UHGV virus genome: UHGV-1493261
Strand: one strand, 5' to 3'
Length of the DNA: 64,000 nt
Source of the DNA: a virus
Below the pieces are notes generated by a model that did no database searches, had not been told where the DNA came from, and worked only from the letters and a program-made list of their open reading frames with translations. A program made the translations under genes and the position numbers. The number at the start of each line of letters is the position of its first letter. Positions within the stretch are counted from its first letter, which is position 1. Positions 8,607-42,819 of the stretch are shown piece after piece.

Positions 8607-8639
8607 TTTAAATACCTCTGCATTCATTGTGGAGGTATT
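8607..8639 (+). promoter_or_regulatory. late-promoter-like TTTAAATA (8607-8614) overlapping the 5' arm of a hairpin (8611-8619 / 8631-8639) whose 3' arm contains the endolysin SD GGAGG
   Basis: AATACCTCT pairs with GGAGGTATT; the ATG at 8644 follows. Confidence 0.45.
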
Positions 8640-8643
8640 TCTT

Positions 8644-9438
8644 ATGGCCATTCTAAAACTTGGCAACCGTGGCACTGAAGTGAAGGCACTTCAGAATAGC
8701 CTCAACAAAATCGGCTTCACCCTCGTCGCTGATGGTATCTTTGGCAAGGCAACAGAGAACGCTGTCAAGACTGTTCAGGCGGGTGCGGGGCTTGTCATTG
8801 ATGGTATCGTGGGTCCAAAGACCTCCTATGCTATTCGCAACGCCGGAGACGCCCATCAGGATCATCTAACTGAGTCAGACCTGATTGATGCTGCTAACGA
8901 TCTGGGTGTTGACCTCGCCTCTGTCAAGGCGGTGAATCAGGTTGAGTCACGCGGTACGGGCTTCACCAAGTCAGGTAAGATCAAGACATTGTTTGAGCGC
9001 CACATCATGTATAAGAAGCTGACGGCGAAGTTCGGGCAGGCTCGGGCGAATGCCATGGGACATATGTACCCGACGTTGGTCAGCCCTTCCGCAGGCGGGT
9101 ACACGGGTGGCGACGCGGAGTTGGATCGACTTCATGCAGCGATCAACATCGACGAGGATTGTGCGTACGAGAGTGCCTCATACGGCCTCTTTCAGATCAT
9201 GGGCTTCAACTGCCAGGTCTGTGGGTATGCCAACGCCAAGGAGATGTTCAACGACTTCCTGACAGGCGAACGCGCTCATTTGATGGCATTCGTGAAGTTC
9301 ATCAAGGCTGACGCCAAGCTCTGGCAGGCTCTGAAGGACAAGAACTGGGCTGAGTTTGCGCGGCGCTATAATGGTCCGGCATATGCCAAGAACCAGTACG
9401 ACACGAAGCTCGCTGCTGCATACCGCAGCTTCAGTTAA
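8644..9438 (+). CDS. endolysin: N-terminal peptidoglycan-binding domain plus muramidase-like catalytic domain
   Basis: PG-binding repeat LGNRGTEVKALQNSLNKIGF...DGIFGKATENAV; C-terminal region SYGLFQIMGFN. Confidence 0.7.
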   Translation: MAILKLGNRGTEVKALQNSLNKIGFTLVADGIFGKATENAVKTVQAGAGLVIDGIVGPKTSYAIRNAGDAHQDHLTESDLIDAANDLGVDLASVKAVNQVESRGTGFTKSGKIKTLFERHIMYKKLTAKFGQARANAMGHMYPTLVSPSAGGYTGGDAELDRLHAAINIDEDCAYESASYGLFQIMGFNCQVCGYANAKEMFNDFLTGERAHLMAFVKFIKADAKLWQALKDKNWAEFARRYNGPAYAKNQYDTKLAAAYRSFS

Positions 9439-14728: not shown

Positions 14729-15079
14729 ATGCAAGATTACAAAGAGCTGAGCATGCAGCTGGCAGTCCCCATACCCGACAAAGATTTATACCAGAACCTG
14801 CATCATCTGATGTCTGAAGGACACATGCTGTCATTGCAGTCTGAGGATGGAACTCAGATCGGTTATGCCACCAGTTGCGTGGTCTACGACAAACCAGGAG
14901 ACGAAGAGCGCGGACAGGTCAGTGTGGGTTCCAGATTTGTGTTGAACAAGAAGCTGGAGGGATCAGTGGTTGACGTCAGGCCGATGATTATCCTCTACCA
15001 CTTCAACGGTAAAGAGATGTTCAGGTTATTGAGCCACTTCATGTTAGTCGTGGCTCCGGCATTCAGGACGAAATTCTAA
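14729..15079 (+). CDS. hypothetical protein (116 aa)
   Basis: ORF. Confidence 0.45.
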   Translation: MQDYKELSMQLAVPIPDKDLYQNLHHLMSEGHMLSLQSEDGTQIGYATSCVVYDKPGDEERGQVSVGSRFVLNKKLEGSVVDVRPMIILYHFNGKEMFRLLSHFMLVVAPAFRTKF

Positions 15080-15456
15080 TTCGTCCTTTTCAACCACACG
15101 GTGTCTGTTATTGGATCTGGATTGTTGACCACATAGAATGTGATGGTAACGCCCAGAGAATGGTAATCCTCTGACAGACTCACCGTGACTTCTTCTACCT
15201 CTGCTCTGGGTTCATACAGGGCGATAGCGTCCTCTACTTTGTTCCTCACGTCTACCTGGATAGTCGGTGTCGTGTTTTCGCCCAGCAGCCCATAAAGCCC
15301 CGCGCCGATCCCAGGATAAGTAGGCCAATCCCCAACCGAAGACATGACGATATTCCGCACGGATTGTAAGACAGCATACACACCTGATTTCATGGTGACA
15401 TCTTTGGTCACCGGATGCATGCCGAACTTCAGATCGACATCTTTATACTCTTTCAT
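15076..15456 (-). CDS. 25: baseplate wedge protein, T4 gp25-like
   Basis: Matches my recollection of T4 gp25 (PGIGAGL..LLGE, YEPR, NPDPI). Confidence 0.75.
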   Translation of the reverse strand: MKEYKDVDLKFGMHPVTKDVTMKSGVYAVLQSVRNIVMSSVGDWPTYPGIGAGLYGLLGENTTPTIQVDVRNKVEDAIALYEPRAEVEEVTVSLSEDYHSLGVTITFYVVNNPDPITDTVWLKRTN

Positions 15457-15529: not shown

Positions 15530-17140
15530 TTACTCTTTGGTGCCGAAATTACCACCATTGTCTTTTAATTCTGCCTTGATGTCAATCTCACCCGGACCCG
15601 TAGGGGATGCAGGGGTTGCACCTGACAGAGAAGAAGCGCGACCAGCACCTTCGGCATATATGATGTTACCATTGATCGTCTGAGCGACAGTCAGTTTGTC
15701 AGCGATTATCTCAGTCGTTAGAATCTTAGGAACCTTCAATGTCCCGCCGACCTCCAGAGTCTCGCAGATAATGCGCAGAATATTCTGCGCTTGCATTTCC
15801 GCTAGGTCACTGAATTTCATCAGCGCTGTGCCCGCAACCACATTTGAGTAGTTGTTGGAATGCAAATGATAGACCTCACCTGTCTTGCGCTGAACTTCAG
15901 TTCCTTTGACCGTCAGGTTGTGGTCCCCGCCGACATAATAACGCTTGTTGAACATCGTCAGGTCATAGTGGTCTTTGACGGACTTGTTGACCACATCACC
16001 ATCCGGCAACATTTGCTTGTAAGACCCAGACTTATGCATCCAATGAAGACGTTCACCACCAGGGGTGTCATCCACTTCCATAATATGCCCAGCTCGGGAC
16101 ACCATGACGTTATTGTACGGGTATTTGGAGCCACCCGCAGCCGGAACTATGGTCTCTCCAGTGTTGTCAATATCCCGCACTCGCCCAGTGGGAGCCGGAG
16201 TCGGTTGTTCCTTTGGAGTACGATCTGGGATAGGTTCTGACCATTTACCATTCTGCTGAGCAGGCAAGGCTGTGGCTGTGTTAGCAGGACCAGGCCAACG
16301 ATACCCCAAGACCGAAGAACGTCTGAAACGACTGACCTTCACTGAATCGGATTGGTTGCCACCAATACACCAGACATAGTTTTCATCGAACTTCTGTACA
16401 AACGCCACGTGTCCAAATGTAGGGTTGTTACCACGCCGGAAGACTACGATAGCACCATATTGTGGTGCTGACAGTGGAGTGCCCCATGTAAGGTAAGATC
16501 GGGCAAGAGCGGAGCGTGTAGACGTGTATCCAGCCTGTATCATAACCCAACCCACGAACGCCGCACACCACGACACTTCATCTTCAGAAGCACCAAGGGA
16601 GGTTGTCTTGTGATATTCTATAATGCGCGGGTTGTTGTTGAACTTTCCGGCATACTCCTTGATACCCAATTCGCCACGAGCGATTGTCATCCACTTCTCT
16701 GGATCATACCCACCAACAGGTGGTTGTGGATCTGGTTGTGGTTCGTCTTCTTGTTTCACAGGAACGTCAGTGACAGCGTTGTACGCCTGACGTTCTACAG
16801 ATTGAACGACCTGCCCGAGAGCCAGCGGGTTTGTGTCGGCGCCATCAGTAGGGCTTGAACCAGTCCAAGTCCAGGTGATGCGTAAATTCTGGTATGCTTC
16901 GTCAAGGGCGAACCCCATAACCTCAGTGCCAGGAATGATACCCGTTGGAGACCAACCTAAACCAGCAGAGGAGGCATTTGAAGCAGGCATCAGTACCTTC
17001 GCCCATGGGAGTTTGTCTGTAGGCAGGAGGACGGGATCGTCGGTGTGTACGCCATATATGCGGACGGCGACGCGCCCGTTTTGGTCTGGATCGTTGACAT
17101 CTTCAACGGTGCCGTAAAACCATCTCATATTGTCTAACAT
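15530..17140 (-). CDS. 5: baseplate central spike: gp5-like N-terminal OB domain fused to a CHAP peptidase/amidase domain
   Basis: N-terminus WFYGTVEDVNDPDQNGRVAVRIYGVH...LPWAKVL; CHAP Cys (SWCAAFVGWV) and His (GHVAFV). Confidence 0.7.
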   Translation of the reverse strand: MLDNMRWFYGTVEDVNDPDQNGRVAVRIYGVHTDDPVLLPTDKLPWAKVLMPASNASSAGLGWSPTGIIPGTEVMGFALDEAYQNLRITWTWTGSSPTDGADTNPLALGQVVQSVERQAYNAVTDVPVKQEDEPQPDPQPPVGGYDPEKWMTIARGELGIKEYAGKFNNNPRIIEYHKTTSLGASEDEVSWCAAFVGWVMIQAGYTSTRSALARSYLTWGTPLSAPQYGAIVVFRRGNNPTFGHVAFVQKFDENYVWCIGGNQSDSVKVSRFRRSSVLGYRWPGPANTATALPAQQNGKWSEPIPDRTPKEQPTPAPTGRVRDIDNTGETIVPAAGGSKYPYNNVMVSRAGHIMEVDDTPGGERLHWMHKSGSYKQMLPDGDVVNKSVKDHYDLTMFNKRYYVGGDHNLTVKGTEVQRKTGEVYHLHSNNYSNVVAGTALMKFSDLAEMQAQNILRIICETLEVGGTLKVPKILTTEIIADKLTVAQTINGNIIYAEGAGRASSLSGATPASPTGPGEIDIKAELKDNGGNFGTKE

Positions 17141-17174
17141 ATTGAGTTCCGGTTGTCAAACAAGGATTTGAAGG

Positions 17175-17182
17175 TATTTATG
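17175..17182 (-). promoter_or_regulatory. late-promoter-like CATAAATA, 35 nt upstream of the gp5-like start
   Basis: Minus-strand read of 17175-17182. Confidence 0.35.
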
Positions 17183-17481
17183 CGCAGCTGATTTTGCCTT
17201 ATATACTATAGGAAGCTCTGCTTCCGTTCATTTTATTTGTTTTATTCGATCCTATTCGCTTCGCTCATCAAACCGCCCTATGCGGGCAGCACCATTCCAA
17301 TGCCATGGAGGCATAAGGGCGAGGCAATAACTGTACACCCCAGAACACTCCTTGAAAAATGGTATTTTACTGACAATCTGATTCAAAACAAACAAACACC
17401 AACAAATGACTCGGGAACAAGCCCATTATAGCAATTTCAGGTAAAGAGAGTGCGTGTTAACCGATTTTACAGTTAAGCCAA

Positions 17482-17505
17482 TAAAAATCCCGCCGAAGCG
17501 GGATT
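17482..17505 (-). terminator. terminator hairpin AATCCCGC-ttcg-GCGGGATT + TTTTT (minus strand)
   Basis: Perfect 8-bp stem plus T run downstream of the gene ending at 17653. Confidence 0.6.
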
Positions 17506-17652
17506 ACTGTTTCTTAGACAACCTGACCTTGAGGGCTTCGGTTAACAAGTCAAGATGCCATGGCATCGACTCGTTGATTTCAAATATGCTATAGCCGTGT
17601 AACTTCAATTCATCACACATCACGAAGTAGGATAATAAATCAGTTTCAAACA

Positions 17653-39899: not shown

Positions 39900-41288
39900 T
39901 TAAACCTTCTGTGCTTGGCCTTTCTCAATCGCCTGAGGAGTAGTGGTGGAAGCAGTTGTCTGATTGGTCTGAGGTGGAAGCACCTGCTCCAGCAAACTGT
40001 CCTTGGCAATCTCAGCGATGCACTGATAATCTTTGGTCAGGCGGGAAATCTTGTGACGCACTTTGGTCACGATATAGTGGCCTGTCGATAGCTTACTTAA
40101 CTCTGCCAGGTTTTCGTTCTTCTTAGGACGGTTGGACTGGTCTTCGACGTAGAACACCTGACCGACGTTCAGGCGGTTATCACCAACGAGCAACACGCGC
40201 ATCACAGTGCTGGCAAGACTGAAGTTGATAACACGACTAGCATAATCAATCTGCTCCGCTCCATCCGGCTGGGCTTCAATGTAACGGACGTTCTGACGAT
40301 TGAATTCATCTGAGAACATCGGGAACGGATCAAGGTGAGCCGTCTCTGCAAACCACTCAGTATAGATGCGCTGTGTTGGGGTGACTGTCTTGGTCTCAAA
40401 GTCGTAGACGCGCTCGTTCACCGCCAGGACATCGCGGTAGTTTGCCATGAACTGGTCACGCGCCAGCTTCTTCTCTGCCTTGATGATCGTGCGCATAAAG
40501 CGCTCAGAGTTGAAGTTGTTATCCTGCATGAGCGGCGCGTCCTGAGGATCACGGAACAACTTGTTCTGTTGAGCTAGTTCCTGCTTCTCTTCTGCTGTCA
40601 ATGACTGGCTACCCTGGTTGAACAACGTCGTCAGGCTCTTGAAGTGATAGCCATTGAAGTCTTCATAGAACACGAATGGCATGAACAATTCGTCATAAGA
40701 ACGGCTCGCCATATAATCAATAGATCGCAGCACAGGCCAGAGAGGGGTGGCGAACCGCTCTTGAATTCCATATGACGGGTCGATGTCTTCGAACTTGGTG
40801 CGCGACTCCAGCTGATTGAAGATTGTCTTCGCCATGTCAGAATACGAACCGTCAAGACCGAGGGAGCATCGGATCATGCTGTCCTTATAGGCATCGGTGG
40901 TCACCATGTGCAACCAGAATGCTTTCTTGGACGAGCTGTTGGACTCATCAGCTACGCGCCCAACACGCGCTACGCGCAGGGAGAGAGTGGTGTAATCCGA
41001 GGCCGCCGGACTCTTGAATGACACCACAACTTCTTCGCCACCCAAGATAGGCATTGTGTCAAGAATGTCCCACCCCTCTTTTATCAAGACATTGGCTGTA
41101 AGCGATGGAGATGACTTCCCTTCAAGACCCAGATCCTGGAAGACGTTGAACTCCTCAAACAACGCCGTCAGGTCATATGGCGTTGGTGATCCGCCCTGGG
41201 GTGTATGAGGGAGTATCGCCATATACTTCAGGTCAAATGTTGTTGACGGTGTTACAATACCGTCTTGGGTCTCTCTGTTTTCGATCAT
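39900..41288 (-). CDS. hypothetical structural protein (462 aa), candidate baseplate hub component
   Basis: Position in the structural block only. Confidence 0.35.
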   Translation of the reverse strand: MIENRETQDGIVTPSTTFDLKYMAILPHTPQGGSPTPYDLTALFEEFNVFQDLGLEGKSSPSLTANVLIKEGWDILDTMPILGGEEVVVSFKSPAASDYTTLSLRVARVGRVADESNSSSKKAFWLHMVTTDAYKDSMIRCSLGLDGSYSDMAKTIFNQLESRTKFEDIDPSYGIQERFATPLWPVLRSIDYMASRSYDELFMPFVFYEDFNGYHFKSLTTLFNQGSQSLTAEEKQELAQQNKLFRDPQDAPLMQDNNFNSERFMRTIIKAEKKLARDQFMANYRDVLAVNERVYDFETKTVTPTQRIYTEWFAETAHLDPFPMFSDEFNRQNVRYIEAQPDGAEQIDYASRVINFSLASTVMRVLLVGDNRLNVGQVFYVEDQSNRPKKNENLAELSKLSTGHYIVTKVRHKISRLTKDYQCIAEIAKDSLLEQVLPPQTNQTTASTTTPQAIEKGQAQKV

Positions 41289-41839
41289 TTCGCCAACTCC
41301 TGCTCCAGCTGATTGACAAACGAAGACACATAATCTGGGTCGAGTACTTGGATGTTCCGTTTGGCTTCATTCTTACTGATTGCATCATCATGATATGAAA
41401 CTGCCGTCAGACCATAGTTAGCAATTATGGACGGCTCATCCAGGTCTAGGTTATATGCAAATTTGATAGCACGGGCGTCGGTCACGTTGTTGAACTGGTC
41501 GACATAATAGGCTGTATCCCACATACCATCGATGCCGTAATCTGCAGTCAGTTCTTCAATAATACGGCGTTCCGGTTTCGGCCAGTCCTTATTGATGTCC
41601 ATGATGCCGTTTATCAGACAAGGTATCCAAAACAACTCGAAGGATCCGTAAACGCGTTCTGCGAAAGACCTTGGGGTTTCCCCCTCTTGAATCGTATACG
41701 GCAGGAGAAGCCCTTCGATGTCCTTAATTTTCTGTAAGATCATCACCCGGCGCGTTAAGTTCTGTAACAGCACCTGATCATTCTCTTGGACATCTTGCAA
41801 TTGATGCCAAACAAGTGGAAACTTCTCAAAATATTTCAT
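41285..41839 (-). CDS. hypothetical protein (184 aa)
   Basis: ORF coupled within the block. Confidence 0.4.
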   Translation of the reverse strand: MKYFEKFPLVWHQLQDVQENDQVLLQNLTRRVMILQKIKDIEGLLLPYTIQEGETPRSFAERVYGSFELFWIPCLINGIMDINKDWPKPERRIIEELTADYGIDGMWDTAYYVDQFNNVTDARAIKFAYNLDLDEPSIIANYGLTAVSYHDDAISKNEAKRNIQVLDPDYVSSFVNQLEQELAK

Positions 41840-41850
41840 GGCATCCTCTC

Positions 41851-42819
41851 TTAGAAGCTATCGCCTTCGGTTTCAAAGCGCCCTTTATGCAGAGGCTCCA
41901 GTTCGATGAAGGTCATGTCAACCTGCGTGGACACGATACCATCATCTTTGTGAACCGCGTATGAACTGTCCGGCGTCTCGTTGACGAACATGTTGGAAAG
42001 TACACAAGTGGAGATGCGGTGCAGCCACTGGTTACGCTCCCCATTGACCATGAACGTAATGTCGAATGTTGAAGGATGCAAGTAAAACGCGCTGGAATTC
42101 TTGTTGTACTTGTACTCTGGGTACATGTGCATCTTGAACATGCGGATGATCTCACGGACCATTTTGGCTTCCTTCTGAGATCGCGGCGTGAATTTGAATG
42201 TAAACGGAATCTCACGGTTGCGTACCCCCTGGAAGATCATCTCCACATACGGGTTGGTCATCGTACCAGTGAACAACTCAAGGGTGTCATGAGCGTTGAT
42301 GGTAGGCATGAACGGGATAGCCTCCGATGCAGACTGAATGGCCTTGGTCGCTGCAAATCGACCCATTTCCTTCCCGACGTTGAGCGCATCACCCAGTTTA
42401 AACTGAGTCATGTCTTGGGCGGCGCGGGAAAGGAACTGTGCCCCCATACCAGCCAGCCCCAGCTCGCTACCGTTCCAGCCAACGCCATAGTTGGTTGTAA
42501 TGGACTCGGGCATACAAAGTACGATAGACTCGTTTGAACGAACGTGACGCGCCCATGCATATTTGGTGATGGAACCAGACTTGGACCCATAGACCACAGG
42601 AGTATTCCCCAGAGGGTTCTGTATTGGGTTCTCGATAGTCTGAGTAGCCGTGTTGCCATAAGATGAACCGGAGATGCGGTTGATGTTGAATAGGACATAG
42701 TGTCCCAAGGTCTTACCCCCAGTGACGTCTAGGGGATAAGACAATTGCTTCTGAGCCTGGGACAATCCCTTCGTGTTCAGAACCTTGATCTTATCGATTG
42801 TCTTTTTGAAGTCGGACAT
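41851..42819 (-). CDS. hypothetical structural protein (322 aa), possibly baseplate/tube-related
   Basis: Preceded by a late-promoter-like CCTAAATA at 42854-42861. Confidence 0.35.
   Translation of the reverse strand: MSDFKKTIDKIKVLNTKGLSQAQKQLSYPLDVTGGKTLGHYVLFNINRISGSSYGNTATQTIENPIQNPLGNTPVVYGSKSGSITKYAWARHVRSNESIVLCMPESITTNYGVGWNGSELGLAGMGAQFLSRAAQDMTQFKLGDALNVGKEMGRFAATKAIQSASEAIPFMPTINAHDTLELFTGTMTNPYVEMIFQGVRNREIPFTFKFTPRSQKEAKMVREIIRMFKMHMYPEYKYNKNSSAFYLHPSTFDITFMVNGERNQWLHRISTCVLSNMFVNETPDSSYAVHKDDGIVSTQVDMTFIELEPLHKGRFETEGDSF

Follow-up and report, generated by a model that had tools for sequence, protein, structure and literature searches.

The product of the gene at positions 15530..17140 on the minus strand of the 64,000-nucleotide viral window analyzed here is most probably the central spike with which an Ackermannviridae myovirus punctures cells, a spike equipped with a peptidoglycan peptidase that would act at entry. 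We assign this explanation as a whole a probability of roughly 80%; demonstrated in the present analysis are the domain architecture of the protein, the fold of its central domain, the conservation of the catalytic triad and the baseplate gene context. A preliminary description of this DNA had proposed that peptidoglycan is cleaved at peptide or amide bonds upon entry rather than by a glycosidase, and this proposal is supported, by inference from the sequence and the structural model, in the analyses described below.

The window corresponds to an Agtrevirus-like Ackermannviridae genome with a DNA identity of 98.7% to Escherichia phage A221, while the identity of the region to Shigella phage Ag3 (Ackermannviridae, Agtrevirus) is ~93%. 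The spike gene starts with an ATG codon and encodes 536 amino acids followed by a stop codon. Its gp5-type product is 99% identical to P0001, 84% identical to gp5 of Vi01 and 83-84% identical to the Vi01-type relatives. Using tblastn, the full-length protein was found in 279 phage records, the hosts being Salmonella, Klebsiella, Escherichia, Dickeya, Shigella, Serratia and Erwinia.

The spike gene is placed among baseplate genes on the same strand, an arrangement that is identical in Ag3. Directly downstream lies a gene for a gp25-like baseplate wedge subunit (15076..15456; GPW_gp25, E 2.8e-8 in Pfam; phrog_261, E 2e-32), the Ag3 counterpart of which is annotated as Gp25. Upstream, a gene for a gp26-like baseplate hub subunit was identified (17653..18573; T4_baseplate, E 1.5e-46 in Pfam; phrog_150 'baseplate hub', E 2.2e-56). 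These coordinates delimit the maximal open reading frame, and the true start is probably internal, the CDS annotated in Ag3 being shorter. A perfect sigma-70 consensus (TTGACA, a 16-nt spacer and TATAAT; 12/12 matches) is located upstream of the gp26-like gene at 18645-18672 on the minus strand, which is unexpected as late transcription would be anticipated for baseplate genes.

Between the gp26-like gene and the spike gene, on the same strand, lies a conserved 49-aa open reading frame (17504..17653) that matches phrog_9633 (E 3e-39), a family with no assigned function; its Ag3 counterpart is annotated as lacking an identifiable ribosome-binding site. It is followed by an intrinsic terminator (17486..17505, minus strand; 8-bp stem with 5 GC pairs, then a T-run), by which the spike gene is set apart from the gp26 unit. 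The ~345 nt from the terminator to the spike start codon (17141-17485, minus strand) contain no convincing open reading frame. The DNA identity of this segment is 93-99% in Agtrevirus and Limestonevirus phages and ~71-73% in Kuttervirus phages, CBA120 among them. Elements resembling TATAAT and CATAAATA are present in it. An Rfam scan of the segment gave no family above threshold and its RNA stability is not unusual (folding z-score -1.25). The segment may serve as a promoter region or as a long leader.

To delimit the domains of the spike protein, profile searches, alignments with solved structures and structure predictions were combined; all coordinates given here are on the minus strand. The N-terminal OB-fold domain, presumed to be the hub-docking part, spans aa 1-96 (16853..17140). 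Pfam places Gp5_OB at aa 39-96 (E 1.9e-12, 48.1 bits, curated cut-off 25), and aa 3-93 align with T4 gp5 residues 6-101 (1k28/1pdl, E ~8e-15), in agreement with the earlier assignment of the N-terminus to the gp5 OB-fold. Linker 1 (aa 97-148; 16697..16852) is rich in Pro, Glu and Asp (EDEPQPDPQPPVGG), varies across the family alignment, is modelled with a pLDDT below 50 in the full-length prediction and has no domain match in Pfam or PDB sequence searches. It leads into a cysteine peptidase domain of the CHAP/TIGR02594 type (NlpC/P60 superfamily) at aa 150-282 (16295..16693). Here, CHAP matches aa 187-262 in Pfam (E 4.2e-11, 43.6 bits, curated cut-off 26), and TIGR02594 matches aa 150-282 in NCBIfam over model positions 2-132 of 132 (E 6.4e-38, 130.1 bits versus a cut-off of 70.55). 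The OB and CHAP matches are far beyond chance.

Linker 2 (aa 283-336; 16133..16294) is Pro-rich, carries a conserved NGKWSEPIPDRTPK motif in the alignment, has a low pLDDT in the full-length model and gave no domain match. We take its position to match that of the T4 gp5 segment bearing the gp5*/gp5C maturation cleavage site. The predicted start of a gp5-type triple-stranded β-helix follows at aa 337-435 (15836..16132), where aa 337-432 align with T4 gp5 residues 385-477 (E 2.5e-13) and the helix start aligns with residues 385-464 of the T4-like spike 9f4a (E 6.9e-14). β-Strands are likewise predicted at aa 337-435 by AF2. However, the full-length AF2 monomer, computed from an 18-sequence alignment, is too poor (pLDDT 47.6) for the enzyme to be placed with respect to the needle. 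The remainder of the protein, aa 436-536 (15533..15835), forms a C-terminal tip region specific to Ackermannviridae.

Within the spike, the solved structures of T4 gp5 (1k28, 1pdl, 5iv5) and 9f4a match no region other than aa 1-93 and 337-432, and nothing in them aligns between aa 93 and 337. Similarly, a BLASTP comparison with the Tequatrovirus gp5 of phage Ozark (575 aa; Gp5_OB 33-173, Phage_lysozyme 183-310, Gp5_C repeats and Gp5_trimer_C in Pfam) yielded no meaningful identity outside the OB domain and query positions 337-435. Topologically, the CHAP domain is thus found where T4 gp5 has its lysozyme, with the OB domain on one side and the helix start on the other, and no Phage_lysozyme match was obtained, which bears out the previously suggested replacement of the lysozyme. 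Judged by its sequence, the protein is a homolog of the gp5 scaffold and not a 'tail lysozyme'.

The Cys and His motifs previously noted in the middle of the protein were located as SWCAAFVGW, containing Cys192 (codon TGT, 16565-16567, minus strand), and FGHVAFV, containing His244 (codon CAC, 16409-16411, minus strand). Asn262 (16355-16357, minus strand), in the GGNQS motif of aa 260-264, lies 18 residues after His244. According to the alignment and the AF2 model, Cys192 opens the helix 191-202 and His244 opens the strand 244-251. Cys192, His244 and G260-S264 are invariant in 18 spike homologs that are 38-86% identical overall to the query. Among 98 relatives of the domain, His, Asn and Gln are each conserved in 98/98 and Cys in 97/98. 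The exception, P0078, in which Cys is replaced by Ala, falls outside the phage family. This bacterial or metagenomic protein of 357 aa carries the TIGR02594-like domain fused to TIR_2 (PF13676), and the domain may be a wall-binding module that has lost its activity and was taken up by a TIR protein.

In sequence searches of the PDB, no structure related to the central domain was found; GH108/PG_binding_3 modules, which are fused to the domain in bacterial relatives, dominated what the profile search returned. The AF2 model of aa 140-295, generated from 98 diverse relatives, is confident (pLDDT 91.5, pTM 0.88). It adopts a papain-like α+β fold, and its structural matches are NlpC/P60 and CHAP enzymes. 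Outside spikes, the TIGR02594 domain is fused to PG_binding_1, PG_binding_3, LysM or GH108, and it occurs alone in the Pseudomonas siphophage TehO, between a holin and a spanin, that is, in the position of an endolysin. Moreover, TIGR02594 has been described as a VgrG-associated peptidoglycan-degrading effector domain of type VI secretion systems (T6SS) (PMC13055248). Taken together, the fusion partners, the endolysin slot and the T6SS role point to a cell-wall peptidase.

The structural neighbors include DL-endopeptidases, MepS (DD-endopeptidase/LD-carboxypeptidase), the cross-link-cleaving Tae2/Tae3 and amidase-type CHAP enzymes, and with several specificities among them the target bond is not readable from the fold alone. 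Since the closest neighbors are mostly γ-D-Glu-mDAP DL-endopeptidases, the γ-D-Glu-meso-DAP bond is our best guess, at slightly less than even odds; a specificity like that of MepS, a cross-link specificity like that of Tae2/3 or an amidase specificity is also possible. Literature searches retrieved no enzymatic assay of the spike protein or of any TIGR02594 domain, and no cryo-EM or other high-resolution structure of an Ackermannviridae central spike.

We considered whether the peptidase could instead cut mainly protein, be it the spike itself in linker 2 (self-processing), the bond that links Braun lipoprotein to peptidoglycan or a different protein of the envelope. Clan CA enzymes do include proteases, and the strongly conserved NGKWSEPIPDRTPK motif lies where T4 gp5 has its maturation site. 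However, the close structural relatives and fusion partners are all cell-wall enzymes or wall-binding modules, the same domain stands alone in an endolysin slot and no evidence for self-cleavage was obtained, so that a protein target appears improbable to us.

The conservation of the active site bears on a second alternative, namely that the central domain persists only as a structural remnant or serves as a non-catalytic peptidoglycan-binding module and that penetration is purely mechanical. The lysozyme activity of T4 gp5 is dispensable under laboratory conditions, and some myophage spikes lack an enzyme, such as P0031, in which only Gp5_OB and Gp5_trimer_C are present. An S-layer-penetrating myophage is likewise reported to lack enzymatic domains (PMC11948020). 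Nevertheless, Cys192, His244, Asn262 and Gln263 are invariant across Ackermannviridae spikes that are only 59-86% identical overall, and Cys, His, Asn and Gln are also retained across ~90 bacterial relatives, which would be unexpected for a dead enzyme; the single Cys-to-Ala variant is the one found outside the phage family. We regard a purely mechanical spike as marginally less probable still than one acting on protein. That the protein is a true 'tail lysozyme' with glycosidase activity, as most database records label it, and that its CHAP match is incidental, is highly implausible. No lysozyme-like fold, the outcome that would have spoken against a CHAP peptidase, appeared among the structural matches to the aa 140-295 model.

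For a spike carrying a peptidoglycan peptidase, the following course of infection can be proposed. The OB domain would dock a spike trimer beneath the baseplate hub, and the C-terminal part would form a triple-stranded β-helix needle ending in the family-specific tip. Each chain would bear a papain-like Cys-His-Asn peptidase between the OB domain and the needle, held on flexible Pro-rich linkers. Sheath contraction would then drive the needle across the outer membrane, whereupon three copies of the enzyme could reach the periplasm and cut stem peptides, opening the peptidoglycan locally and allowing the tail tube to reach the inner membrane. We infer the trimeric assembly, the catalytic activity, the action at entry and the bond specificity; trimerization, contraction and periplasmic exposure are expected by homology with T4 gp5. 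Orthologs of the spike have been detected in virions by mass spectrometry (PMC10892097; PMC3184105, citing Pickard 2010), and the ortholog of ViI is a virion protein.

Exit of the phage would depend on a different enzyme, an endolysin encoded at 8629..9438 on the plus strand and composed of PG_binding_1 and an N-acetylmuramidase domain (PF11860, E 3e-59). As this endolysin is unrelated to the spike enzyme, entry and exit are predicted to use different peptidoglycan chemistries.

A homolog of the gp27 hub was not identified by sequence searches. A candidate for the gp27-type hub partner of the spike is a 462-aa 'tail protein' (phrog_350) encoded at 39900..41288 on the minus strand, for which no Pfam match and, by sequence, no solved structure was found. 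Rhizobium phage RHph_Y68 encodes a homolog of it (E 2e-11) directly upstream of its own OB+CHAP spike gene, and in the window the gene for the 462-aa protein adjoins the gp53-like (41285..41839) and gp48-like (41851..42819) baseplate genes.

The C-terminal tip was found by tblastn in only 283 phage records, all of them from Ackermannviridae and each time within the spike gene. For aa 430-536, there was no significant Pfam match even at E values up to 10 and no PDB match. A metal apex of the P2 gpV type was ruled out because aa 436-536 contain no histidines. In the Erwinia and Serratia relatives, the tip is extended by a further ~70 aa with a conserved S(D/N)G..WE motif at the end. The tip could be a new membrane-attacking apex that replaces the end of the gp5 helix and the PAAR cap found in T4.

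The gp5 scaffold is clearly modular, with lysozyme, CHAP/TIGR02594, NlpC_P60, VgrG3-like/GH46 or no enzyme following Gp5_OB. The 255-aa protein of Rhizobium phage RHph_Y68 and the metagenomic P0024, P0025 and P0028 are OB+CHAP proteins that lack the helix. Gp5_OB is combined with NlpC_P60 in P0027 and with a VgrG3-like C domain in P0030, while P0031 consists of OB and helix with no enzyme. P0059 carries a VgrG3-like/GH46 domain and resembles the query in its N-terminal region, but Gp5_OB was not detected in P0059 by Pfam. The modularity of the scaffold is useful for spike engineering and for mining enzybiotics against Gram-negative peptidoglycan.

With regard to its origin, the Ackermannviridae CHAP domain has a mean identity of 45.7% (best 58%) to free bacterial TIGR02594 domains versus a mean of 39.5% to the other OB+CHAP spikes. 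These values are compatible with, although not proof of, a domain captured more than once from a pool that would also supply T6SS effectors. If capture was indeed repeated, a cognate periplasmic immunity protein might serve in superinfection exclusion, much as Spackle does in T4. These readings, a novel tip apex and a repeated capture of the domain, seem unlikely to us.

Two proteins were considered as further spikes and rejected. The TehO protein (L004:2483-3028) is a lone CHAP/TIGR02594 domain between the holin and an Rz-like spanin, and the protein of Vibrio phage ICP1_2004_A (L003:2252-2968) has a PG_binding_1+CHAP architecture, lacks an OB domain and is encoded beside nrdB and phoH. The two proteins are probably endolysins that acquired a wrong label when annotations were transferred from spike proteins containing the same domain. 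Hundreds of database records call the spike protein a 'tail lysozyme' although a lysozyme fold is lacking; some public records already label the spike as 'TIGR02594 family protein' or 'cell wall-associated hydrolase'.

A spike with CHAP instead of lysozyme is already described for the ortholog of phage CBA120. In the section 'Baseplate Lysozyme', Kutter et al. (2011; Virol J 8:430, PMC3184105) reported that the 537-aa gp5 homolog has no identifiable lysozyme and that T4 gp5-like regions (aa 3-109 and 334-437) flank a CHAP domain at aa 150-282 (TIGR02594, NlpC/P60 superfamily). The CBA120, ViI/Vi01 and Ag3 orthologs belong to the same family as the spike analyzed here, with differences only at the species level of sequence, and the boundaries given for CBA120 agree almost to the residue with ours. 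Our finding adds little in itself; it correctly recognizes what had already been published for ViI-like phages, a feature that is common (~280 sequenced phages). What is added to the work of Kutter et al. is a confident structural model, the fold comparison, the triad statistics and a delimited tip. A 2017 review placed endopeptidase-type virion lysins mainly in phages of Gram-positive bacteria (PMC5380687); in contrast, a whole family of Enterobacteriaceae myoviruses carries a predicted virion lysin of this type.

The homology to T4 gp5 (1k28, 1pdl, 5iv5) covers the OB domain as well as the β-helix over its first ~100 residues. Both proteins carry an enzyme domain inserted between these two parts, both genes are associated with baseplate genes, and the same role as a central cell-puncturing device is predicted for the spike. 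However, the T4 enzyme is a GH24 T4-lysozyme whereas that of the spike is a predicted Cys-His-Asn peptidase, and the region from OB to enzyme is shorter in the spike. Furthermore, T4 gp5 has Gp5_C octapeptide repeats and Gp5_trimer_C, neither of which was detected in the spike with Pfam, and the tip is different. The entry and exit lysozymes of T4 are paralogs, while the muramidase endolysin encoded in the window is unrelated to the spike peptidase.

NlpC/P60 and CHAP hydrolases borne on hubs or spikes are also known from contractile and short-tail machines directed at Gram-positive bacteria, namely the diffocin Hub-Hydrolase CD1368 (8v3w), the hub of the Staphylococcus phage 812 (9euf/9eum), TAME/ORF56 of phage K and gp10 of Andhra (8ej5). 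These enzymes target thick Gram-positive walls and are built on hub or tail-tip-lysin scaffolds, not on a gp5 OB and β-helix needle, and a PDB sequence search showed no sequence-level relationship with the spike. The free TIGR02594 proteins (bacterial PG_binding fusions, T6SS VgrG-associated effectors and siphophage endolysins) are 45-58% identical to the enzyme domain, share its invariant Cys, His and Asn-Gln and are all predicted peptidoglycan peptidases. They are delivered by Sec, T6SS or holin-dependent release, whereas the enzyme of the spike would be mounted on a phage needle.
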